Positions 17,680 to 55,740 of a stretch of DNA of 64,000 nucleotides are shown here, piece by piece (the stretch's first letter is position 1; each line of letters starts with the position of its first letter). Position numbers and translations under genes: made by a program. The notes beneath the pieces are model-generated. The model ran no database searches and was not told the DNA's origin. It was given only the letters and a program-made list of their open reading frames with translations. This DNA is from Kiritimatiellia bacterium (GTDB taxonomy: Bacteria > Verrucomicrobiota > Kiritimatiellia > RFP12 > UBA1067), in contig JAGCAM010000079.1 of assembly GCA_017652705.1 (NCBI GenBank), forward strand, positions 11,475 through 75,474. Reading direction: 5' to 3'.

Positions 17680-18884
17680 TTCTTCACCTCCGCACGGGGC
17701 TCGGTCTCCAGCCAGGCGTCTCTGGACGGCAGAAACTCGTTGTTCTCCGCTATGACTTGCGACACTTTGCCGTCAAGCCCGAGAAAGCGTATCGGCTTGC
17801 CCGTGCGGTTGTCCATTTTGCAGTTGCGGACCGTAAGTCTGCGCACGGTCGCTTTGGGATCGACGCCGATCGTGTCCGCCGGCAACCGGGTTTCGTTGCG
17901 GTAAACGCGCTCCACGGTGAGATTGCCGATGTCGTTCGGCCCCTCCACCTCGATGATCGGCATCCTGCGCCGGTACCAGACGTCCATCGACGGCGGGCCG
18001 AACTCCTTGGAAGCGAACACGTCGGTAATCACGATGTCGTCCATGACTCCCCGTGGTTTCTGCGGAAAGTAATGGGTGAGCCCCACCGTGTAGCAGTAGA
18101 AGTTGCCGTGGACGTTTCTGATGGTCACGCGTTTAAGTTCGGCGCCGGCGGAGAGGAGACGCGCGGCGCTGTGGCAGTATTCGCAGTAAAGTCCGTCGAT
18201 GTCGACGTCGGTTATCGGGCCCTCTTCCGGCGAGCAGATGCCGTCGTTAGCGTTGAGCGCGACCATGTCGTCGAAACAGGTTCCACGCAGGTTGGTTATC
18301 CGGAAATGGTGGCAGAAGCCGTCGAGATGGACGCCGTCGAGGTTGAGCGGTATCGGATTCCATTTTTTATAGTCGAAGGTAACGTCGTCGACGGTGACGT
18401 ACGACGCCTTGGCGAATTCGATGCCGTACGTCACTGGATTGCGTATCGTCACGCCGCGCAGAGTCACATTCTCGACGTGGCAGAAACGCATACCGATGCC
18501 GATGAACCATTCGGGGTCGAATTTTTCCGGGATCTTCGCCCGCAACTCCGGCAGATGCATGAAGTTGCCGGTCTGACTGACGTTGTCGGCGTCCCAGATG
18601 CCGCCGGTGACGGCGACGAAACGGTTGGTGCCGCCGCCGCGGTAGCATTTGTTCTCGAGCATAGGGCAGTCCGAACCCGGCGCCAGGCGCACGACAGAGA
18701 AACGGTCGAGCCGCAATTCCGTGTTCGAACCGATGCGAAGGGTTTTGGAGATGCGGTAATGCGCGGCCGGCGGCGGCAGATACACGCACGCAGCCCCTGA
18801 ATCGAGACGTTCCTGTATCGCCGCGGTGTCATCCGCGATTCCGTCGCCGACTATCGCGGCGAGCGCCAACATCCACAATGTCAT
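17676..18884 (-). CDS. right-handed beta-helix protein (pectate_lyase_3/GH28-like)
   Basis: 402 aa. GDGIADDTAAIQERLD is the hallmark N-terminal motif of this fold family. An SD AAGGAGA lies upstream. Confidence 0.7.
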   Translation of the reverse strand: MTLWMLALAAIVGDGIADDTAAIQERLDSGAACVYLPPPAAHYRISKTLRIGSNTELRLDRFSVVRLAPGSDCPMLENKCYRGGGTNRFVAVTGGIWDADNVSQTGNFMHLPELRAKIPEKFDPEWFIGIGMRFCHVENVTLRGVTIRNPVTYGIEFAKASYVTVDDVTFDYKKWNPIPLNLDGVHLDGFCHHFRITNLRGTCFDDMVALNANDGICSPEEGPITDVDIDGLYCEYCHSAARLLSAGAELKRVTIRNVHGNFYCYTVGLTHYFPQKPRGVMDDIVITDVFASKEFGPPSMDVWYRRRMPIIEVEGPNDIGNLTVERVYRNETRLPADTIGVDPKATVRRLTVRNCKMDNRTGKPIRFLGLDGKVSQVIAENNEFLPSRDAWLETEPRAEVKK

Positions 18885-19130: not shown

Positions 19131-22100
19131 TCATCGGCCTGCGATTTTAATCGTGCCCGGCTTCAGACCGGGTGCGGTTACAGTCAGCTCAGGGGCGTCG
19201 CCGGTGCCCCGGTAGCGCCTCACCGCCACCACCGCTTTGCCGAACCACAGCGAGTGCCCTTTCAGACTCTTGAAAGACACCATCGACCGGGGATCGCCGT
19301 TGCCTACCGCCGCGATTTCACCCGGGCCTTTCAACAAGACGTCGAACTTCGCGTCCGAGACCGGCGAACGGTTGCCTTTCGAGTCCACCGCGTCAATCTG
19401 CACGAAAACCAGATCGGAGCCTTCCGCCGAATACGGATCGCGCGTGAGCCTGATCGCCTTCGGCGCACCTGCCGTTTTCATCTTCGCTTCGCCGATTTTC
19501 TCCCCGCCGCGGTACGCCACAGCTTTCAGCTCACCAGGCCTGTACGGCACGTCGAACCAACGCAGTCTGTACTTCGCGCACACTTCATAATACCTGTTGG
19601 TGAGCGCAGGGTTGCGTTCCACCACCCCCTTGCGGCGGCGGCCGAGCGATCTGCCGTTGAGAAAAAGTTCCGCCTCGTCGCCTGATGTGTAGACGTAGAC
19701 AGGCACTTTGGTCCCTTTATGATCATTCCAGTTCCAGTGCGGAAGAATGTGCACAGTCTCCGCCTTTTTGTTCCAGTGCGAGCGGTAGAGATGCCAGCGG
19801 TCTTTTGGAATGGCGCAGATGTCGGCGGCGCCGAAGTAGGAACTGCGCGAAGTGTCGGCGACGGTGAAGCTGCGGCCGGCCGCCTTGACATAGTGGCTGC
19901 CAAACTCGCTGGCGCCGAGGAACCAGAGTGTGTAGGGGGTGGGCTCGCCAATGTAGTCGATGCCCGACCAGACAAATTCGCCGCAAACGTAGCGGTCGCG
20001 TTCCATCCGGTCGAATTCGACGTCGGCGATGTCGCCCCAGGTCGCGGCGATCTGGTCGTAGCCGTCGACTTTCCAGTTTTTGACGTCGGCGCGGAACCAT
20101 TCTCCGTGCTCGGTGTTGTTGGTGTTGGACCACCCCTCGCGTTCTTCGTTGCCGGCGAACGGAACCCGGTAGAAGCCGTAGTCGGAGAACGCGCTCGCGG
20201 ATTCCGAATAGAACAGCGGCATCGCCGGGTTGCGCGCGTGCATGTGGCGGTAGCTGCCGCCGTAGTTCCAGCCGTTGAGGTCGAGTCCGTCGAGATCGCC
20301 TTTTTCGACGGCCTTTACGTAGCAGCAGCCAATGCCGACCGGACGGGTGGAGTCTTCGGAGAGAACCGCCTTGCGGAAACGGTCGCAGCGTTCGCGGGAG
20401 GTGCCCTGGGAATATTCCTCGCAGTTGAAATAGATTTCATTGCCGAGCGACCAGGTGAACACGCAGGGATGGTTGCGGTCGCGGCGGACGAACGCCTTAA
20501 GATTGCGCTCGACGTATTCTTCGAGATTCTCCCCGGGGAGCCGCCCGGCGGTGCCGTCCCATTTGTCGAAACATTCATCCCAGACTAGGATGCCAAGTTC
20601 GTCGCAGAGATCGAGCAACTGCGGGGCGGGGCAGTTGTGCGAGGTGCGTACGGCGTTCACGCCCATGTCGCGCATGCAGAGAAGCTGGCGCTTCGCGGCG
20701 TCGCGGTCGAACGCCATGCCGAGCGGCCCCAGATCGGAATGGAGGTTGACGCCGTGAATCTGCAGGCGGCGTCCGTTGAGAAACAGTCCGTTGGTGGTTA
20801 CGGAAACGGAGCGCACCCCGTAGCGGAACTTTTCACCGGCGACGGCGTATTCGTAGAGATAAGGGTCGTCCACGTCCCAGAGACGTGGTTTGAGAATTTT
20901 GAACGAGGCGGACTTTGGACCCGAAAGTGTGCGCCAGCTGACGTTGACGGTCGCCTCGGCGGCGGATATTTTCGGAGTGGTGATCGCCACCGAGCCGGGG
21001 ATGGCGTGACCGTCGCCGCGGGTCACGAGGCGAACGCTGCGGTAAATGCCGCCGCCGGGGTACCAGCGCGATTTGTGGTCGGTCGTGTCGGCGGAGACTT
21101 CAAGACTGTTTTCACCGTTGACGACAAGAGCGGACACATCGAGGATGAAGGATGCGTAGCCGTAATCCCACCCGCCGGCGTCTTTGCCGTTGACCTTGAC
21201 TTTCGGGCGGGCCATCACTCCGTCGAATTCAAGGTAGACCCGCTCGCCCGGCTTGCCGGACTTGCGCCAGACGAAGCTGCGTCGGTAGTCGCCTTTGCCG
21301 CACCACGACAGCTTGCCGGTGGCGTAGTCGTTGGTGTGGTTGAACGGCCCCGCTATCGCCCAATCATGGGGAACCCGCACCTTTGACCAAGCGGAGGAGC
21401 CGCCGCGGCGGAATTCCCAGGCGTCACCGTCGAGAGAGATGGATCGGAACGCCGAGTCGACGTTTTCCCTGGCGAAAGCGGAGAGGTCGGGTTCACCCCA
21501 CAGCGGAACGTAATTGCGGTCTCCGAGAGTTACCGCGAAGGAGGATATCTCCTCGAAACCGAGGAGGCGGTAGTATTCCACGTCGGCGGCGACGACGTCC
21601 TTCGCCTGGCGGAAAAGTTTCACGGGAGATGTCCAGTGGGAGTACAGGGAATTGTCGAACCAGTATTCGAGAACGCGAGAACCGGCGGAGCCGAACTTTT
21701 CAATCAGGGCTTTAAGGGGCTTGGTCTCGCCGTTGTTCTGGTCGGCGAGGGGACGGCCGAGATCGCGTTTGATGGGGGCGTATTCAAGGAACACGCCTTT
21801 GACCGGTTTCACTTTCTCCGGCGGGTTGATGGCGTCGGCGTAGGCAAGGTAGCAGAGTTCGGCGTCGGGTATGAACTTGCGCAATTCGGTCACGATGGCG
21901 TTGGCGAAAATCAGCTGCTGGTCGCTGGCGGAGAATCCGCGGCATTTTTCGCATTTGCACACGCCGCCGTGCACGTCGTCAAGCCACAGACAGTAGCGGC
22001 GGTTGCCGCCGTAGAGGGCCTTGGCGAGTTCGACCGCGCGTTTCCCCGCAATGTTCATGGCTTCGGGGTTGGAGAAGCAGAAGTTCTTGTCCCTGCAGCG

Positions 22101-24380
22101 GGCGCCCTTCTCGTCCATGCGGAAATATTCGGGGTGAACGTCGAAAAGGTTGCGCGGCAGCAGCCAGCTGGCGGCGTGGATTTCATAGCCGATGTCGATG
22201 CCGAGGGCTTTGGCGCGGTCGATGAGGGCGCGGTAGCCGGGCTCTTTCAGTCTGGCGAGTGTTTTATCGAGCGCGACTTCGGCCTGGCCGCCGCCGCCGG
22301 GATGGATGGAAAGATTGTGGAGACCGAGATTCACCGCGCGGTCCACCCAGCGGTCGGAGAGTTCGTCGGTGCCGATTACGAGGGATGTTTTAAGCGCCCC
22401 GGCCGGCGGAGCGGCCGGCTTTTTTTCACGGAACCAGACCTGCATGTCGTTGCCGGGCTGGCGGTGGTCCCACGCGAAGTACGGTATCAGTTTCAGCCCG
22501 TTGGAAGCTTTGAGCGCGGGGAAGGTCTTGTCGCCGATCACGATGGTGTCGTCGGTGAAAGTGGCGTCTTCGGGAAGAACGGCGTCGTAGGCCGCGCCGC
22601 CGTTGTCGCAGCCTTCGGCGCAGTAGAGCATGGGGCCGCGTTCGACGGCGAGACGGCCGAGGTCGTCGACGACGGCGCGGTGGGCGCGGATACGCTTGAC
22701 CGGCATGGGGAAATTGACTTCGACTTTGTCGCCGGCCTTCCATTTTCTGTCGATGTCGATGTAGCCGTCTTTGCCCGGTGCGGGGTCAAGAGCGGCGCCG
22801 TTCACCGAGAGAGTGATTTCCTTGACGCTTGCGGGCACGGTCTGGGTGTACAGGTCGCCGGGCACCGGTTCACCTTTCGCCCAGCCGGGAACGCGGAGTT
22901 TTAGCGTGAACCGCTTTTCGGCGGCCGGGCTGACGGCCAGCGTTGCGCGGCCGTTCCACGGATATCCCGTGTCGCATTTGAACTTGACCCCTTCCACCTC
23001 GGCTTCGCCCTGCATGACGAGGTTCCAGAATATGTTCGCGCCGTCGGTCGCCCACGCGAAGGACGGTATCTGGGGGATGAAGCGGACGTCATTCACCGGG
23101 CAGCAGCTGCAGCCGAACCACTTCGAACGTCTGTAACCTCCTTTGCAGGCGAGCGGGTTGGGGTAGAAGTACTCGTCGCCGGTGAGTGACACGCCGGAGA
23201 GGAATCCGTTGTAGATGACCCGCTCGAGTATATCGACGTATTTGGATTCGCCGGAAAAGCGGAACATACGTTCGTTCCACAGGGCGTTGGCGATCGCGGC
23301 GCAGGTTTCCAGATAGGTCACGCGGTAGTCGTTGGGCAGCAGATAGTCGCGCTCGAACGCCTCGCCGCGGGGGGTTCCGCCGACGCCGCCGGTGAGGTGC
23401 AGCTTGCGACCAGAAACGTTGAGCCAGATGGCGGAAATCGCGTCGAGGTACGCCTTGTCGCCGGTGAGGGCGGCGACGTCGGCGACACCGCAGTACAGGT
23501 AGCCGGCGCGCACAGCGTGGCCGACCGCCTCGCGCTGGAGGACGACGGGCATGTGATCCTGGATGCCCGCGCCCGGGGCGACGATGGGGTCGACCGGTTC
23601 ACCGCCGGGGCCGACCGGCCGCCCGTCTTCGAGAGACCTGCCGCGGCCGCGCATTTCAATGAAGTGGCGCGCGAGGTTGAGATAACGCTTCCTGCCGGTC
23701 ACCCGGTAGAGCTTGGCGAGGGCGAGCTCGATTTCCTCATGGCCGGGCGCGTCTTTGAGCTGGGTCGGGTCGGGCCCGAACACGCGGCAGAAAAGATCGG
23801 CGGATTTTACGGCGACGTCGAGGAAATTGCGCTTGCCGGTGGCCCGGAACCACGCGCAGGCGGCTTCGATCATGTGCCCGTTGTTGTAAAGTTCGTGGCT
23901 GGAGCCGATGTTGGACCAGCGAACGGGGCCCATCATGCCGCTGCTGCCGCCGCCTTTGCTGAAGTGCCAGTGGCCGAGCGTTCTGGCGGTGTAGAGGTAG
24001 CCGTCTAATTCCTGCGCTTTGGCGAACTGACCGATAAGCCAGTCGCAGTATTTTTCAAGTTCGGGGTCGGGGTGGTTGGCGAGCACGTAGGCCGCCCCTT
24101 CCACCACCTTGAACACGTCGGAATCGTCGAAGGGAATTCCGCCGAACTTGCCGGCGCGGGCGGCGGCGTTGGTGAAGTTGGCGATGCGCGGCGTCTCGTT
24201 GCATTTGTCGAAACAGTTTTTGAGGGTGGAAAGACGGTTCGTCTCCAGCCGGTCGTACCAGAAGCCGCCGGTGACTCTGACCTTGGTCATGTCGGCGGAG
24301 CGGATCGGGTAGTCGTTGGCGGCGGCGGCCGCAGCGGCGGCAACGAACGCTGCGACGGCGACAGAGAGTTTCTTTTTCAT
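19131..24380 (-). CDS. secreted triple-fusion glycosidase: GH127 (DUF1680) + DUF4838-like core + GH2
   Basis: 1749 aa with a signal peptide.
- GH127 motifs: HELYNNGHMIEAACAW, GHEEIELALAKLYRVTG, CSCCPVN.
- A Pro/Ala linker follows.
- The DUF4838-like block contains VCKCEKC.
- GH2 part: WSKVRVPHDWAIAGPFN, NHPCVFTWSLGNEI, GEFVWSGIDYIGEP. Confidence 0.85.
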   Translation of the reverse strand: MKKKLSVAVAAFVAAAAAAAANDYPIRSADMTKVRVTGGFWYDRLETNRLSTLKNCFDKCNETPRIANFTNAAARAGKFGGIPFDDSDVFKVVEGAAYVLANHPDPELEKYCDWLIGQFAKAQELDGYLYTARTLGHWHFSKGGGSSGMMGPVRWSNIGSSHELYNNGHMIEAACAWFRATGKRNFLDVAVKSADLFCRVFGPDPTQLKDAPGHEEIELALAKLYRVTGRKRYLNLARHFIEMRGRGRSLEDGRPVGPGGEPVDPIVAPGAGIQDHMPVVLQREAVGHAVRAGYLYCGVADVAALTGDKAYLDAISAIWLNVSGRKLHLTGGVGGTPRGEAFERDYLLPNDYRVTYLETCAAIANALWNERMFRFSGESKYVDILERVIYNGFLSGVSLTGDEYFYPNPLACKGGYRRSKWFGCSCCPVNDVRFIPQIPSFAWATDGANIFWNLVMQGEAEVEGVKFKCDTGYPWNGRATLAVSPAAEKRFTLKLRVPGWAKGEPVPGDLYTQTVPASVKEITLSVNGAALDPAPGKDGYIDIDRKWKAGDKVEVNFPMPVKRIRAHRAVVDDLGRLAVERGPMLYCAEGCDNGGAAYDAVLPEDATFTDDTIVIGDKTFPALKASNGLKLIPYFAWDHRQPGNDMQVWFREKKPAAPPAGALKTSLVIGTDELSDRWVDRAVNLGLHNLSIHPGGGGQAEVALDKTLARLKEPGYRALIDRAKALGIDIGYEIHAASWLLPRNLFDVHPEYFRMDEKGARCRDKNFCFSNPEAMNIAGKRAVELAKALYGGNRRYCLWLDDVHGGVCKCEKCRGFSASDQQLIFANAIVTELRKFIPDAELCYLAYADAINPPEKVKPVKGVFLEYAPIKRDLGRPLADQNNGETKPLKALIEKFGSAGSRVLEYWFDNSLYSHWTSPVKLFRQAKDVVAADVEYYRLLGFEEISSFAVTLGDRNYVPLWGEPDLSAFARENVDSAFRSISLDGDAWEFRRGGSSAWSKVRVPHDWAIAGPFNHTNDYATGKLSWCGKGDYRRSFVWRKSGKPGERVYLEFDGVMARPKVKVNGKDAGGWDYGYASFILDVSALVVNGENSLEVSADTTDHKSRWYPGGGIYRSVRLVTRGDGHAIPGSVAITTPKISAAEATVNVSWRTLSGPKSASFKILKPRLWDVDDPYLYEYAVAGEKFRYGVRSVSVTTNGLFLNGRRLQIHGVNLHSDLGPLGMAFDRDAAKRQLLCMRDMGVNAVRTSHNCPAPQLLDLCDELGILVWDECFDKWDGTAGRLPGENLEEYVERNLKAFVRRDRNHPCVFTWSLGNEIYFNCEEYSQGTSRERCDRFRKAVLSEDSTRPVGIGCCYVKAVEKGDLDGLDLNGWNYGGSYRHMHARNPAMPLFYSESASAFSDYGFYRVPFAGNEEREGWSNTNNTEHGEWFRADVKNWKVDGYDQIAATWGDIADVEFDRMERDRYVCGEFVWSGIDYIGEPTPYTLWFLGASEFGSHYVKAAGRSFTVADTSRSSYFGAADICAIPKDRWHLYRSHWNKKAETVHILPHWNWNDHKGTKVPVYVYTSGDEAELFLNGRSLGRRRKGVVERNPALTNRYYEVCAKYRLRWFDVPYRPGELKAVAYRGGEKIGEAKMKTAGAPKAIRLTRDPYSAEGSDLVFVQIDAVDSKGNRSPVSDAKFDVLLKGPGEIAAVGNGDPRSMVSFKSLKGHSLWFGKAVVAVRRYRGTGDAPELTVTAPGLKPGTIKIAGR

Positions 24381-24410: not shown

Positions 24411-24902
24411 TCACAGATGTTTGATGTTGATTTTGCCTGTGGCGAGTCCCGGGGCCGATGCCGTCAGGGTGGCGGGGCCTTTGCCGGTGCGCCGAAGGAT
24501 TACCAGGGCCTTGCCGTGGAAAAGACGGTTGCCGGCGACGTCCTTGACCGAGTCGTAATCGCGTGGGTCGCCGTTGCCTACCGCTTCTATGACGGCGTCG
24601 CCGCGGACCGCGAAACCGACTCGGTCGCCGGCGTCGGGAACGCGCGTACCGGCTGCGTCCGCTTTCGCGGCGGTTTTCACGCTGGCCACGCCGATCTTCC
24701 TGCCCCTGAGATAGCGGACCGCCCTGAGTTCGCCCGGTTCCCACCGCACGTCAAACCAGCGCAAACGGTAGCGGCCCATAATCTTGTAATACGGGTTGTC
24801 GCGGCCTTTCCCGTTGAACTTGGCGACGTCGCCGCAGTCGCTGTGCAGCGGATAGTCGAGGCGGAGCTTCCGTTTCATTGGCCTTATTTTGTTTTGTCGC
24901 AC
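24411..24902 (-). pseudogene. stand-alone remnant of a GH2 C-terminal region (no catalytic domain)
   Basis: 155-163 aa. RYRLRWFDVRWEPGELRAV and AVGNGDPRDYDSVKDVAGNRLFHGKALVILRR align by eye with the last ~150 aa of the adjacent 1749-aa protein, with an internal gap. Confidence 0.6.
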
Positions 24903-24912
24903 TGAATGGCGG

Positions 24913-27669
24913 TCATTGCTCGACGAATTTCAGTACGCCGAAGGCGTTGAGATCGCTGTTGAAATTGCCGAACCTGTTGTAAAGCCGCGAAAGTTCCCAC
25001 ACCGAACCGGGGGTGCGCTTCGACTTGTCTTTGAGCCAGGCGTCGGCGATTCTCAGCCGCGCGATGTTGCCGTTCCAGTGGATGCCGCCCTGCGTGGTCG
25101 GTATTTTCGCGTCGGCGAAGAAACCGAGGTCGCTGTACGGTATGTAGATTTCGACCGACCAGGAGTCTTTGTTGATTTTCGCCCCGCTCTTCAGCCCCTT
25201 CGGTTCCCACTTCTTGGTCTGAACCCGCAACTGGTTGACGGCGTCGATCCAGAGTTTGAAATAGACGCCTTCAAGCTCGCCGGTGGGGTCGACGAAAATT
25301 TCAAGACAGTCGTTGCCCCACCAGTCGCCGGCCGGGTGCGAAGTCTGCAGGCGGTCGGGGGTCTTCTCCATGCAGGTGATGCCGAACACCACGCCTTGCG
25401 AAGTCCATACCGCCTGCACGTAAGTCGGATATTTCGCCACGGTGTTGGTGCGGCTGCCGCTGCCGTCGATACCCGCGAGCGCGCAGGAGAGCGGCTCGGC
25501 GAGCTTCCAGCACGGGTCGGAGAGGTCGCCGTCGATTTTCGGAAGTTCGGCGGCCTTGCGCATGTGCAGGTCGGGGAAGGCCTTGTTGTTGGCGTACTCC
25601 CAGCTTTCCCTGAAAAACCGCTCGAAGGGTTTGGCGTAGTAGGCGAGACGGTTCGAGGCGGCCGCATCGTCGGCGAGAGCCCTGAACGACTCTTTGATTA
25701 TGCGTTCCATCTCCTCCACCTCGGCGCGCGGGTAGCTGATGCCGAAAACGTTTTTGCTGGTGACGCTCGGCCGCTTCCACTGCCGTGCCCACCCTTTCTC
25801 CTGCATGTCGATAAGTTTGCGCATCGGCGCGGCGGCCTTGCCGAACATCCGACTGGCGAATTCGTCGTAGACGTCTTTCGCCTCGAAGCCGGGGTTCCAC
25901 ATCGCCCGCACCCAGACGTAGGCGGAGAGCCCGAGCCGGTCGACCGGATACCCCCCGTTCAGGAAAGATCCGCAGATCACGCCCTTCATCCTGCGGTAGA
26001 ATTCAACAGCGGTGCCGCCGAAAACGTAAGGGGCGCAAGTCCGGTCGGCCGGCCAGCAGATGTAGTGCCAGTTCTGCACGGGGTTGCCGGTCGCCTTCGC
26101 CCATTGGCGCATGAGCTCCTCCTCGTGTCTGCGGGCTGATTCCTGGGCGAGCAGCGCGAGGCCCGGCATGGTGCACAGAAACGCGTCCACGTTGCCTTCG
26201 GCCGTGAGATCGAGACCTTTGGGCACGTCGCAGGTGTTGATGTAGGGAAGTATGGAAATGCGCCAGTCGGGATATTTCCGCTTCATCCATTTGGCGAGTT
26301 CCTTGGTGAAATACCCCCAGATTATCGGCGAAGCGTCGCCCGTGGGCGCGGCTGACTTGTCCACGAGTTTTTTGCAGAAATCGCAGTGGCAGACGACGGC
26401 GGCGTCGTACTGCGAAACGGTTACGGTTTTGCGCTGCACGTCGACGGGGTCGCCCATAAAGCCGCGGCGTTTGCCCTCGACCGTCAGGTTGATGTGCTCC
26501 TTGTAGGTCTGCAGCGTGCGGGGGTTGCCGTAACAGAGCATGGCGGTGCGGGCGCGTTCGCCGTTTTCGGACAGGGCGAAGATTTCCGGTCGCCCCGTCC
26601 AGCGGCTCGGCTTGTAACCGAGATTGGGGTCGACGTGCCAGTAGCTCGGGGTGTGGACCCGGTGCGATGACTGGTGGGCGTCGCCGAATTTCCAGCCGCG
26701 GTGACCCGCTGCGAATTCGGTGCGGAATTCATAGACCGGTTTGTCCGACCAGTTGAACCGTGGCAGGGCGAGACCTTCCGTTTTGATAACGAGTTCGCCG
26801 ATCTTGCGGTCGGGGTAGTACTGGCGTACGCCGAGTATCCGTTCGGCGAAGTCGTAGACGGCGTAGCCGGAGGCGGTCGCATGCGCGCCGATGAGGAAAA
26901 CGTCCCCTCCTTTGGTGAGACAGCGGAAGGCGTGTGCGCCGACGCCCCACCGGGTGTCGGGGGTGCCGGGGCGGGTGACGCCGGCTTCGCGGGCGGCGAG
27001 GGTGTCGCCGATGTAGATCGCGCCGCCGCCGGTGTAGGCGGTGTTGGTGCCGAGATGGAGAACCGGCGGCTTGGCGCCGGTCATCTTTTCGATTATTTCA
27101 GCGAGCCACACCGCTTCGCCGCGCGCTTCGGCCGCCACGATCGGCATGCGGGCGACGCCGTCGGCGACGACCACGACCGGTTCCCCGCGAGGGGCCGAGA
27201 ACGCGGTGAGCGGGGTCAGGTCTTTGGCGCGCGGATTGCCGGGCGCGAGCTGCGCTCTGGATCCGTCCTCCGCGGTGACGAAACTCCCTTTCCGTTCCGC
27301 GGCGGCGGCCGAAGTCTTGGTGAAGTAGTTGGTGGCGAGCGCGGTACGCGACGTCCGGCGGTACGCCTCGAAGAGAACTGAATACTCACCGGCCGGCAGA
27401 TCTTCGACATGCAGCGAAAGCGCATTGCGCCCGACCCGCAAGGGAACCGACTGCGTGCGGAGCATCCTGCCGGACGCGTCGCGCAGCGTCATTTTCACGC
27501 TGTCGGCGGTGCAGACCGGAACCTTTGCCTCGAAGGCGACGTAGACGTCGTCCTTGCCGAGCGTCTGCCGGTCGCCCGAGGCGCCGGTAAATCCGACGGC
27601 CGGCGCCGCGGCGGCGGCGGCGGAAAGGATTGCCGCGGCGGCGAAAAGAACCTGTGCTGTCTTTGTCAT
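24913..27669 (-). CDS. secreted DUF4838-family protein with a C-terminal CBM9-like domain
   Basis: 918 aa with a signal peptide. It has VCHCDFC, WHYICWP and PKIDGDLSDPCWK. It is a close paralog of the C-terminal 760 aa of the 30401-33721 product. Confidence 0.85.
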   Translation of the reverse strand: MTKTAQVLFAAAAILSAAAAAAPAVGFTGASGDRQTLGKDDVYVAFEAKVPVCTADSVKMTLRDASGRMLRTQSVPLRVGRNALSLHVEDLPAGEYSVLFEAYRRTSRTALATNYFTKTSAAAAERKGSFVTAEDGSRAQLAPGNPRAKDLTPLTAFSAPRGEPVVVVADGVARMPIVAAEARGEAVWLAEIIEKMTGAKPPVLHLGTNTAYTGGGAIYIGDTLAAREAGVTRPGTPDTRWGVGAHAFRCLTKGGDVFLIGAHATASGYAVYDFAERILGVRQYYPDRKIGELVIKTEGLALPRFNWSDKPVYEFRTEFAAGHRGWKFGDAHQSSHRVHTPSYWHVDPNLGYKPSRWTGRPEIFALSENGERARTAMLCYGNPRTLQTYKEHINLTVEGKRRGFMGDPVDVQRKTVTVSQYDAAVVCHCDFCKKLVDKSAAPTGDASPIIWGYFTKELAKWMKRKYPDWRISILPYINTCDVPKGLDLTAEGNVDAFLCTMPGLALLAQESARRHEEELMRQWAKATGNPVQNWHYICWPADRTCAPYVFGGTAVEFYRRMKGVICGSFLNGGYPVDRLGLSAYVWVRAMWNPGFEAKDVYDEFASRMFGKAAAPMRKLIDMQEKGWARQWKRPSVTSKNVFGISYPRAEVEEMERIIKESFRALADDAAASNRLAYYAKPFERFFRESWEYANNKAFPDLHMRKAAELPKIDGDLSDPCWKLAEPLSCALAGIDGSGSRTNTVAKYPTYVQAVWTSQGVVFGITCMEKTPDRLQTSHPAGDWWGNDCLEIFVDPTGELEGVYFKLWIDAVNQLRVQTKKWEPKGLKSGAKINKDSWSVEIYIPYSDLGFFADAKIPTTQGGIHWNGNIARLRIADAWLKDKSKRTPGSVWELSRLYNRFGNFNSDLNAFGVLKFVEQ

Positions 27670-27683
27670 TTTTCCGCGCCATT

Positions 27684-29771
27684 TCAGAACTTCACGGAAG
27701 TCGAGAGCGTATCGACGAAACCGGGCTGTCCGCCGCCGACGTAAACCGCGGTTTCACCCGAGGGCACCGTCGCTTTGCCGTCTTCGCCGAAAACCGCGAA
27801 CTGCTCGTTCAGCAGCGTGAAGGTGACGTTCCGCGACGCACCGGGGGCGATGCGAACGCGCGTGAACCCCTCAAGATGGTGCAGACGGCGGTCGCCGGCC
27901 GCGGCGGGGGCTTTCAGATAGAGCTGCACGACTTCGTCGCCGGCGAGCTTGCCGGTGTTTTTCACGTTGACGGTGATCTCTGCGCCGGACGCCGTCTTTT
28001 TGGCCCGGATGTCGGAGTAGGCGAAAGTCGTATAGGAAAGTCCGTAACCGAACGGATACGCCGGCTTTTTCGTGGCGTAGCGGTAGGTGCGCCCGACGAG
28101 GGTGTAGTCGGCGAACGCGGGAAGGTCGTCGTAGGATTTCGGGTAGGTGATGGGGAGCCTCCCGGCCGGGTTGTTTTTGCCGAATATCGTGCGGGCGACT
28201 GCGCGCCCCCCCTGTTCACCGGGATACCATGCGAGAATGACCGCGTCGGAATTTCTGACGACCGGCTCGAGATCGAACGGGCTGCCGCCGAAGATGACCG
28301 AGACTACGCACTTGCAGCTCTTGCGGTAGCCCTCAAGCAGTTTCAACTGGTTCTGGGGCAGCGAATAGGAGGTGCGGTCGCCGCCGGAATTGTTGACGCT
28401 GCACCCCTCCTCGCCTTCGTCTTCGGCGGTGATGCCGAGACAGACTATCGCGATGTCGCTGCCGTGGGCGCCTTCGGGCACGCCGATTACGCGAACCCCC
28501 GGGCCTGCCTCTTCGACCACCCCGGAGAAGACTGTTGACGGACGCGCAGCGTAGCCGCAGTAGTTGCCGATAAGAGCCACTTCGTCCATCGCGCGCGGAC
28601 CGACCACGCCCACGCAGACGGCTTTCTTGGGGTCGAACGGCAGTGCGCCGTTGTTGGAAATCAGCACGAGAGATTTCTCGGCGGCCTCAAGCGCGAGATC
28701 GCGGTTGGCCTCGGTCGCGACGTCCTTTTCGCCGAGGTGATCCCACGGCGTGGAACCGTTTCTGTCGAACTGGCCGAGCAGAACGCGGGTGTTGAGAAGC
28801 TGCACCAGCGGTCGCTTGAGCTCGTCGCCGGTGACCTTGCCCTCTTTAATGGCGTCGCGGAGGCAGGCGTAGGTGCCTTCCGAACAAAGGTCGAGACCGG
28901 CCGCGATCGCCGCTTTGCACGCCGCCACCCTGTCGGCGGTGAAATGATGTCCGGTGTGGATGTCGGCGACCGCGCCGACATCGCTGACGATATGGCCTTT
29001 GAAGCCCCATTCGCCGCGGAGGATGTCCGTGAGCAGTTCGCGGTTGGCGCAGCACGGCACGCCGTTGAGGGCGCTGTAGGCGCCCATGAACGCCTCGACT
29101 TTCGCGTGCATCGCCAACGTGCGGAACGCCGGCAGATAGTATTCGCGGAGATCCCGCGCCGAAACCTTGGCGTTGAACCCGTGGCGCAGACGCTCGGGCC
29201 CCGAATGCACCGCGAAGTGTTTGGCGCACGCCGCGGTTTTCAGATACTTTTTGTCGTACCCCTGCAGCCCGCGGACGTACGCTCCGCCCATTACGCCGGA
29301 GAGGTAGGGGTCTTCGCCGAACGTCTCCTGGCCGCGCCCCCAGCGCGGATCGCGGAACATGTTGACGTTGGGGCTCCACAGGGTAAGCCCTTTGTAGATT
29401 TCACGCTGGTCGCGTTCGCGGAAGAGGTTGTACTTGGCGCGCGTCTCGGTCGAGACGACGTCGCCGACGCGCTCCTGCAAGCCGGAGTCGAACGAGGCGG
29501 CCATGCCCATCGACTGCGGGAACACCGTGGCGAGACCGGCGCGGGCGATGCCGTGCAGCGCCTCGTTCCACCAGTGGTAGCGGGGAATCCCGAGCCTGTC
29601 GACGGCGGGGGAGTCCATCATCAGCAGATCGACGCGTTCCTCTGGGGAGAGTTGCTCGACCATCGTCCGCGCGCGCAGCTCGCATTCGGAACGGCGGTAG
29701 TCGGAAGGTATGGCTGCGGCGGATGCCGCGGCGAACGCGGCGATGGAACCAGCGGCTATTTTCATGTTCAT
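27684..29771 (-). CDS. GH3 beta-glucosidase/beta-xylosidase family protein
   Basis: 695 aa with a signal peptide. It has KHFAVHSGPE, GHIVSDVGAV (nucleophile-Asp region) and a C-terminal fibronectin-like domain. An SD GGAG lies upstream, and there is an ATGA overlap with the upstream ORF. Confidence 0.88.
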   Translation of the reverse strand: MNMKIAAGSIAAFAAASAAAIPSDYRRSECELRARTMVEQLSPEERVDLLMMDSPAVDRLGIPRYHWWNEALHGIARAGLATVFPQSMGMAASFDSGLQERVGDVVSTETRAKYNLFRERDQREIYKGLTLWSPNVNMFRDPRWGRGQETFGEDPYLSGVMGGAYVRGLQGYDKKYLKTAACAKHFAVHSGPERLRHGFNAKVSARDLREYYLPAFRTLAMHAKVEAFMGAYSALNGVPCCANRELLTDILRGEWGFKGHIVSDVGAVADIHTGHHFTADRVAACKAAIAAGLDLCSEGTYACLRDAIKEGKVTGDELKRPLVQLLNTRVLLGQFDRNGSTPWDHLGEKDVATEANRDLALEAAEKSLVLISNNGALPFDPKKAVCVGVVGPRAMDEVALIGNYCGYAARPSTVFSGVVEEAGPGVRVIGVPEGAHGSDIAIVCLGITAEDEGEEGCSVNNSGGDRTSYSLPQNQLKLLEGYRKSCKCVVSVIFGGSPFDLEPVVRNSDAVILAWYPGEQGGRAVARTIFGKNNPAGRLPITYPKSYDDLPAFADYTLVGRTYRYATKKPAYPFGYGLSYTTFAYSDIRAKKTASGAEITVNVKNTGKLAGDEVVQLYLKAPAAAGDRRLHHLEGFTRVRIAPGASRNVTFTLLNEQFAVFGEDGKATVPSGETAVYVGGGQPGFVDTLSTSVKF

Positions 29772-30397
29772 TTGACTTCTCCGTGTGGGATTTTAACCTT
29801 TGCGGGTTGAAAAATCATTTGAAGGCCACTTTCGCCGGCGCAAGGCCGTCGGAACTCGCGGTCAGTTCGGCAGCCCCTTCCGCACTCGATGCCCGCCCCC
29901 GGGTACCAGCGCGAAGCGTGGTTGTAGGTCGAACACGCGACGACGACGTGGTTCGACTTTGCCGCCAGCAGCCCGGTGACGTCCATCCGGAAACTCATGT
30001 AGCCGTAGTCCCAGCCGCCGGCCAGCCGCCAGTTGACGTAGCCTTTCGCGTCGGCCATGACGCCGTCGAATTCAAGGTAGGCTTTGTCGCCGTTCTCGAG
30101 CAGCGCCCAGTCCGCCGCCGGAATGTCGTCCACCCACCTGCGGTACATGTAGGCCCCCTTCCACGGCAGCTTGCCGGTGACCGGCCCGGCCAGGGGGTTG
30201 AACGGGCCTTCGATCGCGGCGTCGTGAGGCACTTCGACCTTTCGCCATCCTTCGGTCGGATCCGCCGCCTGGATGTTGCGCAGGTGGTCGCCGTTCAAGT
30301 CGCGGATGTACAGCCATCCGCCGTCGAGCGGAACCGTGCCCGCACCGGCGGCGAAGACGCCGCCGAGAACGGCGAGCGGAAAAATGATCTTTCGCAT
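29768..30397 (-). pseudogene. signal peptide plus GH2 N-terminal sugar-binding domain only (truncated GH2 remnant)
   Basis: 209 aa. WRKVEVPHDAAIEGPFN, AYLEFDGVMADAKGYVNWRLAGGWDYGYMSFRMDV and SRWYPGAGI match the GH2 part of the 1749-aa protein. Similarity stops near aa 171, and a non-homologous tail follows. Confidence 0.6.
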
Positions 30398-30400
30398 GCC

Positions 30401-33400
30401 TCAGTTCTCGCGGAAGATGAACTTTGAAAAAGCTCCCGGATCGCTGTTGTAGCCGTTGCCGCGCGTATGCAGGCGGGACATCTCGGTGGTGTGCGGGGTT
30501 CGCTTGTTGAGCGGACGGATCGTCTTGTCGCCGCGGCGGAGGCGGATGAAGTTCCCCGTCCAGGACATGCCCCCTGAAGTCGTCGGGTGCACCGCGTCTT
30601 TGTAGAGCGCGATCATCGGCTTGTACGGCACGTAAAGTTCGATGCTCCACGACTTCTCGTTCTTCGCGATCGCGCAGCGGACGCCTTCCGGCCCCTGGGC
30701 CTTCTTGAAGCCGTCGTACCACTCGAACTTGCCGCTCGCGTTGATAATCACGCGGCCGAAAGCGCCGTAGTCGCCGCCGAGGTCGATCAGCGCTTCGACG
30801 CAGTCGTTGACCCAGTAGTTGCCGGTGGGGCCGTCGTTGCAGAGGTTCGCCATGTCGCTTTCGCGGCAGTCCATGCCGAACGTGACTGCGGTCGGCGTCC
30901 ACACCGCGCGTATCGACGTGCCCTCTTTCGGCGTCGTGCCCTCCTTGCGCGCGCCGGTGAACTCCTGCGCTTCGGCCAGCTTCCAGCAAGCGTCGTCGAG
31001 CTTGCCGTCGATCACGGGGTCCTGCGACACTTTCTGCATCATGAGCGGCGCAAAGGCGCTGCCGGCGGCGTATTCGGCCGATTCCTTGAAAAACTGCGTG
31101 AAGCCGCCTTTGTAGTAGGCGATGCGCTTCATGAGCAGCTCGTCGCCGGCGCAGAGCTGCTCTGCCTCGGCGAAGAGCCCCTCCATCCTCAGAACTTCCG
31201 CCCGCGGATAGGAAATCGTGTAGATGTTCCGGTTGTTGACGCGGGAGACCTTCCACTGCCGCTCCCAGCCTGTCTCCTGCAGGCGGACGATCTCGCGCAG
31301 CTGTTTCGCCGCGGGCCCGAACATGCGGTCGGCGAAGGTGTCGTAGACGGAGTCGATGTTCAGCTCGGGGTTCCACAGCAGGCGCATCCAGCAGTAGGCC
31401 GAAAGCACCAGCCGGTCTACCGGGTAACGACCGTTGAGAAAGCTGCCCGCTGTGATTTCGCGCGTGTCGCGGTAGTGGCGCTGGGCCGTCTTGGCGAAGA
31501 TAAACGGCGCCTGGCAGGTCTCCGCCGGCCAGCAGATGTAGTGCCAGTTCTGCACCGGCCGACCCGTCACCCGCGCCCAGTCGCGGATGAGTTGCTCCTG
31601 GAACTCCTTCACCGGCTTCTCCTTCAGCATGGCGAGACCGGGCATCGTGCAGAGAAACGCCTCGACGTTGCCCTCTTCGACGAAGTCCACCCCGTCGGGT
31701 ATGTCGGTCGTGTTGTGGTACGGCAGAATGACTATTTTCCAGCCGGGCAGTTCCTTCTTCGCCCACTTGGCGAGTTCTTTCGTGAAGTAGCCCCAGAGCA
31801 CGTTCGAAAAGCTCACGCGGCTTTCGGCGATGTTCTCCTGCGGGTGTCTGGCGAGTATCGCCTTGCAGTATTTGCAGTTGCAGAAAACGGCGATGTCCCA
31901 CTGCGAAACGGTGATGCACTTCGCCAGCGGTGCGGTGATGTCGCCGCGTGGCGAACCGCTGGCGATTTCGGCGAGGATGCGCTCCTTGTACGTTTCGAGG
32001 GTGCGGGGGTTGCCGTAGCAGAGCAGCGGCATCGTCGCCCGTTTGCCGTCGTCGGTCAGCGCGAAGATTTCCGGCCGCGTGAACATGAAGTTGAGGTTGG
32101 TGTTCCTGTTCCACGCCCCGGGCGCATGCACGTGGTGCTCTCCGCAGTGGCTGTCGCCGTTTTTCCACACCCGGCACCATTCGTTGCCTTCGTACGGCCA
32201 GAGGTCGCGCTTGGCGAAAACCGGCTTGTCGGAGTAACTGAACGCCGGCAGCGAAAGCCCGTATGTTTTCACCACAGTGCGGCCGCCGTTCTTGACGTCC
32301 CAGTATTCGCGCACGGCGAGGGCGCGCTCCGCGAAGTCGGTCGCCGCGTAATCGCACCGCGCGCCGCAAAGGTAGACCGACCCGTCTTTCACGCACACCT
32401 TGAACCCGTGCGCGTCGACGCCCCAGCGCTCGCGCTGGTAGGTGGCGAGCCCCGCGCGGCGCGTCGCCGCTACATCGCCTATGTAGATCGCCGGGGCGTT
32501 GGTGACCGGTCTGCCGCCGCACTCGCGCACGATCCTGAGCCTGGCGCCGGTCATGTCCTCGATCACCGAGGCGATGAACTGCGCGGCGAACTGCCCGTCA
32601 CGCGAATCTTCGCAGACGATGTCCATCGCCGGTATCGAGCCGAGAGCGACGGTCGCGCCGGCGCCGCCCAGCCAGCGGAAATCTTTCACCGGCGTCAGAT
32701 CGCGCGCGTTCACGTTCATCGGGGCGCGCTGCGCATGATAAACCCTGCGGCGGACGTCGTCGACGCGCACCACCGCCCCGCCGCGCTTGCCCGATTCCTC
32801 CGCGGCGGCCATGAGCGCGAAGATCTCGTCGGTTTCCTCGGAAGGGAAAGGCTTCACCCCGGTTTTGAAAAACTTGAGTATCTCCTCGAGCATCGGCGCG
32901 TAACCCTCGTATCCCCCGAGATCGACCACCCCCTTGTCGGCGGTGAACGCCTGGCCGGAGTAATTCCACATCCCGGGCCCGCGCATCATGCGCAGACCGC
33001 CGAATCTGCCGTCGCGCCATCTGACGGCCACGAAATCGTTGCTTTCGTTCGAAAAGCAGCTGACCGATTCGGCACCGACCCCCATCACCGCCACGAGCGG
33101 CTCGAAACCGTGGATGCCGTACCAGGTGAACCGCGAGTGGGTGCGCTCAAGCGGCGAGGGAGCAGCGTAGTTGACGCCGCGCACCACGCCCAGCTCCCCT
33201 TTGCGCGCCGCCTGCACCTTCGAAGTCCACCGCAGCGCGGAACAGCTGAAGAAATTGGCGTTGACCCGGCGCGCCTCGTCGAATATCCGGGTGGCGGACT
33301 GGTAGTCGCTGGCGAGGGGCTTGTCGATGAACACCCGCTTGCCGCTCGCGAAAACCTCCCGCGCCTGGGCCAGATGCTCGCGGCCGTCCTGCGTTTCAAG

Positions 33401-33721
33401 CAGCACCACGTCGCACTTCGCCAGCACGTCTTTGACGCTCGGCTCCATTTCAACGCCCATCTCCTTCATCTGCCCGATGTATTTCGGGTAGTTGTTCGTC
33501 ACCGCGGGTATCGTGCGCGAGCCGTACTTGTACGCGGCCACGACCCGGAAATCTTTGAATATCTCGCGGTCGCGCTTGACGTTGATGTGCCTGGTGAACT
33601 CGGTGGCGTGCGACGTGTCGACGCCGATGACGCCGATCTTGATTTCGCCGGCCGTCGGGGCGGCCGCGGCCGCCGCCGCCGCGAGAAGTGCGATTGAGCG
33701 AAGTGGTCTGTCCATTTTCAT
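30401..33721 (-). CDS. secreted fusion: Gfo/Idh/MocA oxidoreductase domain + DUF4838 + CBM9-like domain
   Basis: The ATG at 33721 (MKMDRPLRSIALLAAAAAAAA) has an SD GGAG; the track ORF starts at a TTG at 33757.
- Oxidoreductase part: IKIGVIGVDTSHATEF, FIDKPLA.
- DUF4838 part: FCNCKYC, WHYICWP.
- CBM9-like part: IDGKLDDACWK. Confidence 0.85.
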   Translation of the reverse strand: MKMDRPLRSIALLAAAAAAAAPTAGEIKIGVIGVDTSHATEFTRHINVKRDREIFKDFRVVAAYKYGSRTIPAVTNNYPKYIGQMKEMGVEMEPSVKDVLAKCDVVLLETQDGREHLAQAREVFASGKRVFIDKPLASDYQSATRIFDEARRVNANFFSCSALRWTSKVQAARKGELGVVRGVNYAAPSPLERTHSRFTWYGIHGFEPLVAVMGVGAESVSCFSNESNDFVAVRWRDGRFGGLRMMRGPGMWNYSGQAFTADKGVVDLGGYEGYAPMLEEILKFFKTGVKPFPSEETDEIFALMAAAEESGKRGGAVVRVDDVRRRVYHAQRAPMNVNARDLTPVKDFRWLGGAGATVALGSIPAMDIVCEDSRDGQFAAQFIASVIEDMTGARLRIVRECGGRPVTNAPAIYIGDVAATRRAGLATYQRERWGVDAHGFKVCVKDGSVYLCGARCDYAATDFAERALAVREYWDVKNGGRTVVKTYGLSLPAFSYSDKPVFAKRDLWPYEGNEWCRVWKNGDSHCGEHHVHAPGAWNRNTNLNFMFTRPEIFALTDDGKRATMPLLCYGNPRTLETYKERILAEIASGSPRGDITAPLAKCITVSQWDIAVFCNCKYCKAILARHPQENIAESRVSFSNVLWGYFTKELAKWAKKELPGWKIVILPYHNTTDIPDGVDFVEEGNVEAFLCTMPGLAMLKEKPVKEFQEQLIRDWARVTGRPVQNWHYICWPAETCQAPFIFAKTAQRHYRDTREITAGSFLNGRYPVDRLVLSAYCWMRLLWNPELNIDSVYDTFADRMFGPAAKQLREIVRLQETGWERQWKVSRVNNRNIYTISYPRAEVLRMEGLFAEAEQLCAGDELLMKRIAYYKGGFTQFFKESAEYAAGSAFAPLMMQKVSQDPVIDGKLDDACWKLAEAQEFTGARKEGTTPKEGTSIRAVWTPTAVTFGMDCRESDMANLCNDGPTGNYWVNDCVEALIDLGGDYGAFGRVIINASGKFEWYDGFKKAQGPEGVRCAIAKNEKSWSIELYVPYKPMIALYKDAVHPTTSGGMSWTGNFIRLRRGDKTIRPLNKRTPHTTEMSRLHTRGNGYNSDPGAFSKFIFREN

Positions 33722-33876: not shown

Positions 33877-35232
33877 TCAGCCGCGGAACCGCACCGGCGG
33901 CTCCCAGCCTTTCGCGTATTCGTCGCGGCACCACAGCTTCGCGGCAGCCCCTTTGTTCTGCAGCGCACCCGTCTTCGCGTCGAGCCGGATGGTTTCGCCG
34001 GTCGACCACGCCAAATTGGCGGTGTGCGCCATCTGCGTCGTCGCGAGCGACTTGTCCGGACCAGCGAAGCATAGTTTCGGATCCTTCGCGCGGATCGCGT
34101 CCACCCAGTTGCTGACGTGGTCGGTGTCCATGTAGCTCGCGCCGGTCGTGGACTGTATCCACTCGAACGCGCTCTGATCAAGCCACTTGCCGACGAGTTT
34201 GCTCTTGTTGTCGTACTGGAAAACCCCGTCCTGCGGGTGGAAAAGCACCGAACCGCCGGGGCCGAAGAACATGCACCCCGTGCCGATGTCGTGCGGCGCC
34301 TTCACGTTCGTCGACGAGAGGCATTCGAAAGTGATGATGCGCCCGTCGGCGAACTGGTAGCTCGCGTGCTGGGTGTCGGGCCATTCCCAGTCGTCGCCGG
34401 AGTGGAAGCACCTCGCGCCGAGCGAAACCGTCTTCACCGGGTAGTCCACGCCCATGCCCCAGCGGGCGATGTCGAGAAAGTGCGGCGAGTTGTTGCCCAT
34501 CTCGCCGGTGCCCCAGCGGCGGAACCAGTGCCAGTTGTAATGCACGTAATTGTCGTGGAAGTCCGTGCGCGGCGCCGGCCCCTGCCACATTTCCCAGTCC
34601 AGCCACTTCGGCGGGGCGACCTTCTTGCCGACGCCGATCGTCCCGCGGCGGGAGGTGTACCAGCAGCGTGCGTACTTTACATCGCCGATGAGCTCCTTGA
34701 GCCGCGGTATCATCTCGCGGTACACGCGCGAAGCGCGGCGCTGGCAGCCGATCTGCAGCACCTGGCCTGTCTTCTTCCACGTGTCGAGCAGAATCTGCCC
34801 CTCCTCGCCGTTGTAGCTGCACGGCTTCTCGACGTACACCGCCTTGCCCGCGAGCATGGCCATCCACGCCAGCGGCGCGTGCCAGTGGTCGGGCGTCTCG
34901 CAGATGATCCCGTCGATGTCTTTCATCTCGAGGATCTTGCGGATGTCCGTCGTCTGATAGGGCTTCTTGCCGGTGCGCTTCTCGACTTCCGCCACCGCCG
35001 CCGGCATCCCCTCCGGCCGCGTGTCGACGTCGCAGATCGCCGCCACTTCGACGCCGGGCGTCACCGACGCCGCGCGCATCACCCAAATGCCGCGGCACGC
35101 GCCGCGGCAGCCCATGACCGCCACCCGGACCCGGTTCGACGGAGCGCCCGCCCCGATGACGTTCTTCGCCGACGCGATGAAAAACGCGCCCGCCCCGCCT
35201 TTGATGAAGTTCCTTCTGTCCGTCTTGCTCAT
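33877..35232 (-). CDS. TAT-exported Gfo/Idh/MocA oxidoreductase (GH109-like architecture)
   Basis: 451 aa with a twin-arginine signal MSKTDRRNFIKGGAGAFF, a Rossmann RVAVMGCRG and EKP (VYVEKPCS). Confidence 0.85.
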   Translation of the reverse strand: MSKTDRRNFIKGGAGAFFIASAKNVIGAGAPSNRVRVAVMGCRGACRGIWVMRAASVTPGVEVAAICDVDTRPEGMPAAVAEVEKRTGKKPYQTTDIRKILEMKDIDGIICETPDHWHAPLAWMAMLAGKAVYVEKPCSYNGEEGQILLDTWKKTGQVLQIGCQRRASRVYREMIPRLKELIGDVKYARCWYTSRRGTIGVGKKVAPPKWLDWEMWQGPAPRTDFHDNYVHYNWHWFRRWGTGEMGNNSPHFLDIARWGMGVDYPVKTVSLGARCFHSGDDWEWPDTQHASYQFADGRIITFECLSSTNVKAPHDIGTGCMFFGPGGSVLFHPQDGVFQYDNKSKLVGKWLDQSAFEWIQSTTGASYMDTDHVSNWVDAIRAKDPKLCFAGPDKSLATTQMAHTANLAWSTGETIRLDAKTGALQNKGAAAKLWCRDEYAKGWEPPVRFRG

Positions 35233-55667: not shown

Positions 55668-55674
55668 GAAGTTA

Positions 55675-55683
55675 ATTCTACCA
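55675..55683 (-). promoter_or_regulatory. extended -10 box TGGTAGAAT, 7 nt from the ATG at 55667 (leaderless candidate)
   Basis: The reverse complement of attctacca is TGGTAGAAT. Confidence 0.5.
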
Positions 55684-55740
55684 AAATACGCCGCCAAGGG
55701 CAATAGCACGCGCCGGACGCGGTACGTCGGCGGCTGTCAC

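Follow-up and report, generated by a model that had tools for sequence, protein, structure and literature searches.

The glycosidase gene cluster considered here raises the question of how two incomplete pieces of one enzyme type came to lie on either side of intact genes. It was found in a 64,000-nucleotide (nt) stretch of contig JAGCAM010000079.1 (the window), which stems from an uncultured gut Kiritimatiellae bacterium and carries all relevant genes on the minus strand. An intact gene for a glycoside hydrolase of family 3 (GH3) and an intact DUF4838 gene are enclosed there by two open reading frames (ORFs), one of which corresponds to only the N-terminal and the other to only the C-terminal part of a glycoside hydrolase of family 2 (GH2). 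Either these are the two ends of a single gene into which a segment was brought, or they are what is left of two genes. The results described below suggest that the latter is probably the case, and that two redundant GH2 paralogs were each crippled by deletions of their own in a process of recent pseudogenisation.

In the following, n209 is the ORF of 209 amino acids (aa), c155 the ORF of 155 aa, and big1749 the fusion protein of 1749 aa. The genes behind n209 and c155 are called GH2_A and GH2_B, and the intact GH2 in big1749 is called GH2_C. The gene order and domain content that had been proposed in an initial annotation were confirmed by Pfam:

30401–33715, minus strand: GFO_IDH_MocA, DUF4838 (GH163/GH185-type) and CBM9-like modules, 1104 aa from ATG (GFO-DUF4838 gene)
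29768–30397, minus strand: n209, GH2 N-terminal domain (GH2_N) only, with signal peptide, 209 aa
27684–29771, minus strand: GH3, intact, three domains, signal peptide, 695 aa
24913–27669, minus strand: DUF4838 (GH163/GH185-type) and CBM9-like modules, intact, 918 aa, upstream partner of GH2_B
24411–24878, minus strand: c155, GH2 C-terminal domains only, 155 aa from the ATG at 24878, 163 aa from a GTG at 24902
19131–24380, minus strand: big1749, GH127, DUF4838-like part and complete GH2, 1749 aa

The GFO-DUF4838 gene, of which the ORF reaches 33757 if counted from a TTG, stops 3 nt ahead of the n209 start and is the upstream partner of GH2_A. The sole intact GH2 in the cluster is GH2_C, a complete five-domain enzyme encoded at about 19131–21458. 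When this GH2 part was compared with the whole window by tblastn, matches beyond the intact gene occurred only at 30256–29888 and 24797–24423, and no GH2 TIM barrel was found in any frame between the two pieces (24411–30397), in agreement with the initial annotation. Neither did Pfam detect the catalytic TIM barrel domain (PF02836) in n209 or c155.

A second GH2 3' end upstream of GH3

The evidence that distinguishes one gene from two lies in a stretch of 116 nt that separates n209 residue 170 from the start of GH3. Translation of this segment in three frames revealed, one base off the n209 frame, the peptide SAEGAAELTASSDGLAPAKVAFK directly followed by a stop codon. It resembles the C-termini of GH2 enzymes, such as the end of c155 (ATLTASAPGLATGKINIKHL) and the end of the intact GH2_C (PELTVTAPGLKPGTIKIAGR), both also followed by a stop. 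For a C-terminus profile, 20 database GH2s were aligned, with the window sequences left out, and the final 36 columns were taken; this profile was searched against all 1644 stop-to-stop six-frame peptides of the window (122,435 residues). The highest score was obtained with c155 (56.1 bits, E 1.8e-16), followed by the peptide at 29886–29818 (28.3 bits, E 9.2e-8) and the intact GH2 (27.0 bits, E 2.3e-7), and the next best peptide reached 8.3 bits (E 0.17). The match of the second peptide extends to the final residue before the TGA and follows the family consensus nearly residue for residue. The G+C content at third codon positions (GC3) of this short relic is 0.65 in its own frame and 0.61 in the n209 frame, the number of codons being too small to discriminate between the two. 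The n209 region can thus be divided as follows:

29888–30397, minus strand: 5' part of the GH2_A relic, with start codon, signal peptide and GH2 N-domain to residue 170 (ending in SRWYPGAGI)
29875–29890, minus strand: GH2_A deletion junction, where N-part homology ends at 29888 and the C-end relic starts at 29886 in a neighbouring frame
29815–29886, minus strand: 3' end of the GH2_A relic, the last 23 codons (SAEGAAELTASSDGLAPAKVAFK) and the original TGA, found with the C-terminus profile and out of the n209 frame
29768–29887, minus strand: read-through tail of n209, residues 171–209, recognized by three-frame translation and covering the 3' relic and what was once the spacer between GH2_A and GH3

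Since GH2_A has retained its 3' end and its stop (TGA at 29815–29817, about 43 nt upstream of the GH3 start), the gene was complete in place and lost its middle by a frame-shifting deletion. Measured on the intact paralog, the junction lacks about 617 codons (some 1.85 kb), and the frame is shifted by one base. Because of this frame shift, the tail of n209 is to be regarded as the product of reading through the 3' relic and the former spacer. Moreover, because GH2_A holds its own 3' end, c155 must stem from another GH2. This contradicts the earlier proposal of a single GH2 gene with its central approximately 500 codons replaced, against which the own 3' end of GH2_A (28.3 bits, E 9.2e-8) speaks. 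The 23-codon C-terminal relic with its stop (29886–29815) had been missed initially, as had a 27-residue deletion in c155 that is described below.

Truncation of both pieces

Alignment to the intact GH2 and to homologous enzymes confirmed both ORFs as truncated GH2 pieces. Residues 48–170 of n209 are 49% identical to residues 995–1112 of big1749 over 124 residues (BLASTP), and the alignment stops at residue 170, close to residue 171 where the similarity had been reported to end. With 38 full-length GH2s as partners, the n209 alignments break off at this residue in almost every case. The Pfam match to GH2_N (PF02837) covers profile positions 32–142 of 169 with a score of 26.1 bits, which is under the 28-bit cut-off, and positions 143–169, including the conserved Y-R-x-V-x-L strand after GAGI, are missing; the N-terminal sugar-binding domain is therefore not complete in n209. 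Where family conservation reaches 80% or more, n209 keeps the residue at 29 out of 33 sites, as compared to 31–33 in functional homologs; among the conserved residues that have changed are the W of the PHDW motif, now A, and the G of VNG, now W.

The composition of the ORF changes along its length, with a coding-like GC3 of 0.86 for residues 1–170 (neighbouring genes 0.80–0.87) and a non-coding-like 0.51 for the tail of 39 residues. An AlphaFold model gives a confident beta-sandwich at residues of about 80–165, predicted local distance difference test (pLDDT) scores below 50 at residues 172–189, and a strand at residues 193–197 with a pLDDT of about 75. The ATGA overlap that had been noted between n209 and the GH3 gene is indeed present in the sequence, with the TGA stop of n209 overlapping the ATG start of GH3, and is most readily explained as a side effect of the frame shift.

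The C-terminal piece is incomplete at its beginning as well as internally. In the 163-aa version of the ORF, Pfam recognizes DUF4982 profile positions 34–60 of 61 and GH2_C5 positions 23–102 of 103, so that the two domains are not complete, and residues 36–160 are 40.5% identical to residues 1595–1746 of big1749 (BLASTP). The c155 ORF has no signal peptide, which n209 and the neighbouring enzymes do have, and also lacks the N-domain, the Ig domain and the TIM barrel. Homology to other GH2s begins at its first residues, in the middle of DUF4982, where PMKRKL matches GRRRKL of homologs and the segment PMKRKLRLDYPL aligns with GRRRKLKADCEELKYYPL in the homolog P0291; its start codon is therefore probably fortuitous, as judged from these alignments. 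The loss at the 5' side of GH2_B amounts to about 630 codons. A further lesion lies inside the remaining part:

24657–24662, minus strand: in-frame internal deletion of about 27 codons (81 nt) in GH2_B, between c155 residues 73 and 74

The missing block of about 27 residues comprises the first strands of C5 and is present in all 21 aligned homologs (21/21), c155 being the only sequence without it. This absence also explains why, in a search of 1.84 billion representative proteins, nearly all matches that span both halves of the query align in two stretches. The family-conserved residues are largely kept (25 of 31), as are 15 of the 19 sites that are at least 90% conserved, where 20 homologs keep 16–19, and the GC3 of 0.78 is coding-like. 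The ORF adjoins the DUF4838 stop within 35 nt. Compared with all functional homologs, both remnants are thus truncated or frame-shifted. An attempt to pair the three GH2 3' ends by their nucleotides was of no help, since the last 72 nt of c155 are about 50% identical to both other copies and all three are equally distant, with no sign of a recent duplication.

Repeated pairing of DUF4838 and GH2

The two free-standing DUF4838 genes share 44% amino-acid identity over about 800 aa. When 24913–27669 is compared with 30401–32700, nucleotide patches of 70–86% identity appear in a constant register of 5476–5491 nt, which supports an old tandem duplication of a DUF4838-GH2 unit as the probable source of these patches. 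With the paralogs in register, a second GH2 is to be expected after the 918-aa gene, which is where c155 lies. An earlier suggestion that two DUF4838-GH2 units had recombined comes closer to the evidence as far as the units are concerned; signs of recombination between them were not found, and each GH2 carries its own deletions. The DUF4838-like part of big1749 is only about 23% identical to the two free-standing genes.

Origin of the remnants

The following course of events is proposed. In the original cluster, three DUF4838 glycosidase modules would each have had a GH2 paralog immediately downstream: the GFO-DUF4838 gene would have been followed by GH2_A and the 918-aa gene by GH2_B, with GH2_C as part of the big1749 fusion. 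An internal loss of about 1.85 kb would have removed from GH2_A the final part of domain 1, all of the Ig domain, TIM barrel and DUF4982, and the greater part of C5, leaving the start, the signal peptide, 170 N-terminal codons and the last 23 codons with the stop. Translation would then run frame-shifted through the relic 3' end and the spacer to a chance TGA on the GH3 ATG, giving n209. In GH2_B, a loss of about 1.9 kb at the 5' side would have taken the ribosome-binding site, the start, the signal peptide and all that followed as far as mid-DUF4982, and a further 81 nt would have been lost in frame at the start of C5, so that an ORF of 155 aa that opens at a fortuitous ATG remains. On this sequence evidence, n209 and c155 are likely to be non-functional pseudogenes. 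Their deletions appear recent relative to the old divergence of the paralogs (40–56% identity), with erosion only just begun, because GC3 is still coding-like, most conserved residues are kept, and the untranslated 23-codon relic is still near the consensus. The losses may have been tolerated since GH2_C supplies the activity. The slight excess of changes at conserved sites in both relics can serve only as a proxy for relaxed selection. The initial view of the locus as a snapshot of rearrangement in a glycan-utilisation cluster, with two truncated GH2 remnants, is supported and can be extended by decay, in contrast to the view of an insertion into one gene.

Several points weigh against this explanation. 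Neither GH2_A nor GH2_B was found intact in a close relative, and the state before the deletions has been deduced. The two genes overlap only in their last 18–23 residues or so, with 10 of 18 identical, so that they are told apart by the 3' end that GH2_A retained and not by comparing them directly; the pattern could also be mimicked by a cassette that had taken a GH2 3' end along. Long open frames with most conserved residues kept would also fit a residual function, and the modelled strand at residues 193–197 could in principle patch the sheet of n209, even though its placement is probably driven by the alignment. Finally, all three assemblies discussed below were built from reads of a single sample, in which a mixture of deleted and undeleted strains might be present.

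The alternatives have to be judged against the same observations. That a GH3-DUF4838 segment replaced the centre of one GH2, with n209 and c155 as the ends of the same gene, is suggested by the order of N piece, insert and C piece, which resembles an insertion accompanied by a deletion. The GH3 gene evidently moves between loci, as its nearest relatives (77–78% identity) are found in unrelated contexts, and P0261 and P0265, the best-scoring full-length GH2s for the N piece, rank near the top with the C piece as well. However, the segment would have to bring its own GH2 3' end (28.3 versus 8.3 bits) with a stop about 43 nt before GH3, and the repeated succession of DUF4838 and GH2, together with the in-register DUF4838 paralogs, predicts a second GH2 anyway. 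Traces of such an event are also lacking: no direct or inverted repeats were found at 29771–29890 and 24797–24915, and Pfam detected no transposase or integrase at or between the junctions, where only the GH3 and DUF4838 genes lie (24411–30397). Terminal repeats, a target-site duplication and a recombinase or transposase at the borders, by which a mobile element or cassette would be recognized, are thus all absent, and we consider the splitting of one gene unlikely. It is very unlikely that c155 was never complete at this position and arose long ago by partial duplication, when the 3' end of either GH2_A or GH2_C was copied to a place behind the 918-aa gene. Only the 3' part of about 0.5 kb is present, within 35 nt of the DUF4838 stop, as this would predict, but with 40% identity to GH2_C and about 50% nucleotide identity in the last 72 nt any duplication must be old, and an unselected fragment would not have kept a GC3 of 0.78 and most conserved residues for so long.

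Selection for two stand-alone proteins, with n209 as a lectin-like GH2_N module that is secreted and c155 as a small protein made of C-terminal domains, would account for the open frames, the coding-like GC3 and the conserved residues that are mostly kept, as well as for the signal peptide of n209, its start 3 nt past the upstream stop, its end on the GH3 start and its confidently modelled beta-sandwich (residues of about 80–165). Both ORFs are nevertheless cut inside domains and not at domain borders, the tail of n209 consists of a frame-shifted relic and spacer, c155 is without a signal peptide and two conserved strands, and the database searches described in the next section gave no orthologs with the same borders, the other short matches being truncated or frameshifted copies of different GH2s and all fold matches of n209 being N-domains of full-length GH2 enzymes. 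This makes selected stand-alone proteins highly improbable. An assembly artefact, whether through chimeric joining or through the collapse of variants in a mixture of strains, has the lowest probability of the explanations considered. Only one metagenome sample is available, and Logan contigs break within the region at 26077 and 29551. The window sequence is, however, also found on ENA scaffold XIEF21-1_SAMN15830161 scaffold_167 and on Logan contigs of SRR12529136, and both junctions are 100% identical in the window contig, scaffold_167 and two Logan contigs, which come from different pipelines. Composition is even across the junctions, and the junction sequences are repeat-free and unique, that of GH2_A occurring only once in the window. 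Between 18984 and 19767, a single-base difference exists between the window and the ENA and Logan assemblies, the remainder being identical. With the alternatives set out in this way, the separate decay of two GH2 paralogs remains the explanation that we prefer.

Possible functions of the fragments

In the databases n209 is recorded as 'MAG: hypothetical protein J6T01_04905'. A search with n209 among 5.8 billion proteins gave a best non-self match of 48% identity, no closer than the paralog in the same cluster. For both relics, the best non-self matches are 48–55% identical and consist of full-length GH2s, pieces truncated by contig ends, and frameshifted ORFs of other GH2s. The short database matches listed for n209 are cut by contig ends or frameshifts, and their ends are scattered on the GH2 reference; where the contig is long, the ends are out of frame and rich in Arg/Pro, and identity to other GH2s is 60–80%. 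One candidate, P0064, also has 209 aa and breaks near the same point, and was rejected as an n209 ortholog on account of its Arg/Pro-rich, frameshift-like ends and its 77% identity to a different GH2. Among the 5.8 billion and the 1.84 billion proteins, in databases that hold no close relative of the organism, no ortholog truncated at these borders was found, and conserved short families were not encountered in relatives.

The search for similar folds with the n209 model likewise returned only N-domains of full-length GH2 enzymes. A complete domain conserved as a short gene, which would characterize a stand-alone lectin or carbohydrate-binding module, was not found for n209, which is cut before the last strand. 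The initial remark that both frames are open, and that n209 might be expressed as a lectin-like protein, is thus correct for the frames; the cut domain, the non-coding-like tail and the absence of short orthologs make a lectin-like role unlikely as far as can be judged from sequence. It is also quite unlikely, although conceivable, that the relic ORF couples translation from the GFO-DUF4838 stop to the GH3 start, or that the secreted beta-sandwich binds a glycan. In the case of coupling, the frame-shifting deletion would have survived by keeping ribosomes translating up to the GH3 start, whereby expression of GH3 and downstream genes would be preserved.

Gene order in relatives

Comparison with other genomes did not recover an uninterrupted GH2 at this position in relatives. 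Scans of genome contigs (with the DUF4838 alignment) and metagenome contigs (with the GFO-DUF4838 protein) gave homologs of at most 42% identity without an adjacent GH2. Orthologs of GFO-DUF4838 with 71%, 55% and 54% identity are followed by rubrerythrin, by a LamG protein and GH20, and by another DUF4838 gene, and never by GH2. The closest GH3s (77–78% identity, same length) are located between other glycosidases in unrelated contexts, and the region upstream of GH3 aligned without homology to that of its closest relatives. Given these differing neighbours, gene order around these enzymes must change quickly, and the ancestral state is therefore unreadable from relatives.

Some further observations were made on these loci. 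At the locus of the 54% ortholog (L021, 1191–6904), a second DUF4838 gene of 772 aa comes directly after the GFO-DUF4838 gene, without GH2 or GH3 between them, and a GH3 of 935 aa with 78% identity (P0123, locus L019, 19–2826) has a C-terminal extension of about 240 aa without a Pfam match. The possibility that the DUF4838-GH2 fusion is recurrent was dismissed after checking long GH2 homologs, none of which is fused to DUF4838. GH2s of the subfamily occur as fusions to AXE1, GH28, GH9, GH31 with GH43, and type II secretion pseudopilin-G (P0269, P0315, P0333, P0358, P0309), and other long GH2 homologs are fused to F5/8 modules. The GFO_IDH_MocA Rossmann module (residues 36–327 of the GFO-DUF4838 protein) recurs with 49–55% identity in P0246–P0258, and its partners in the databases include GH28, GH20, melibiase, GH39, a GH95-like domain and PF16490, which suggests that the fusion of oxidoreductase and glycosidase is a widespread theme in the lineage.

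Surroundings of the cluster

The remaining genes of the cluster are listed here:

33877–35232, minus strand: GFO/IDH/MocA oxidoreductase
17676–18884, minus strand: GH28-like gene
16888–17679, minus strand: endonuclease/exonuclease/phosphatase-family gene

The cluster lies between housekeeping genes, one for an ATPase subunit and one for DnaB. The GH127 module of big1749 is of the beta-L-arabinofuranosidase type. Elsewhere in the window, two very large minus-strand ORFs at 46361–51379 (1672 aa) and 51420–55709 (1429 aa) give almost no Pfam signal: the first matches CBM9-like only, and the second matches nothing.

Implications and comparison with known systems

The proteins n209 and c155, which are called hypothetical or GH2-domain proteins, should be flagged as pseudogene fragments, since otherwise counts of carbohydrate-active enzymes for this Kiritimatiellae genome are inflated. 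Searching a profile of the missing gene end against out-of-frame sequence beside a break is a cheap test by which an insertion into one gene can be told from two decayed paralogs. The locus itself shows how redundant GH2 paralogs turn over in a glycosidase cluster that is being reshuffled rapidly, which is an expected process and involves no new mechanism.

With respect to known enzymes, DUF4838 is the catalytic domain of the CAZy families GH163 (BT1035) and GH185 (Sp_0475), which are distant relatives of GH20 (PMC10570127). Like these, the genes upstream of each GH2 carry PF16126; unlike these, their Pfam matches reach only 55–90 bits, and the modules are fused to GFO_IDH_MocA, CBM9-like domains or GH127/GH2. 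The combination of PF16126, GH2 and GH3 in one cluster points to an attack on glycans that contain N-acetylglucosamine or galactose, as may be deduced from the families present. The solved structures closest to GH2_C are the GH2 beta-galactosidase-type 5T98, 9BEY and 4YPJ, and both relics and GH2_C belong to the same sequence family as the five-domain GH2 enzymes with DUF4982 and GH2_C5 (BuGH2A, 5T98/5T99; the lambda-carrageenan-active 9BEY; 4YPJ; BgaA, 4CU6). The n209 model superposes on the N-domains of these enzymes. In contrast to them, the relics have lost the Ig domain and the TIM barrel and their flanking domains are broken, so that neither can be a glycosidase.

The features of the two relics correspond to those of bacterial pseudogenes that were made by deletion, including truncation, a frame shift, a retained stop, additional small deletions, an intact paralog next to them and the absence of a short family. 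They differ from the usual deletion pseudogenes in that they give sizeable ORFs that are called hypothetical proteins, and in that one of them ends exactly on the start of the next gene.

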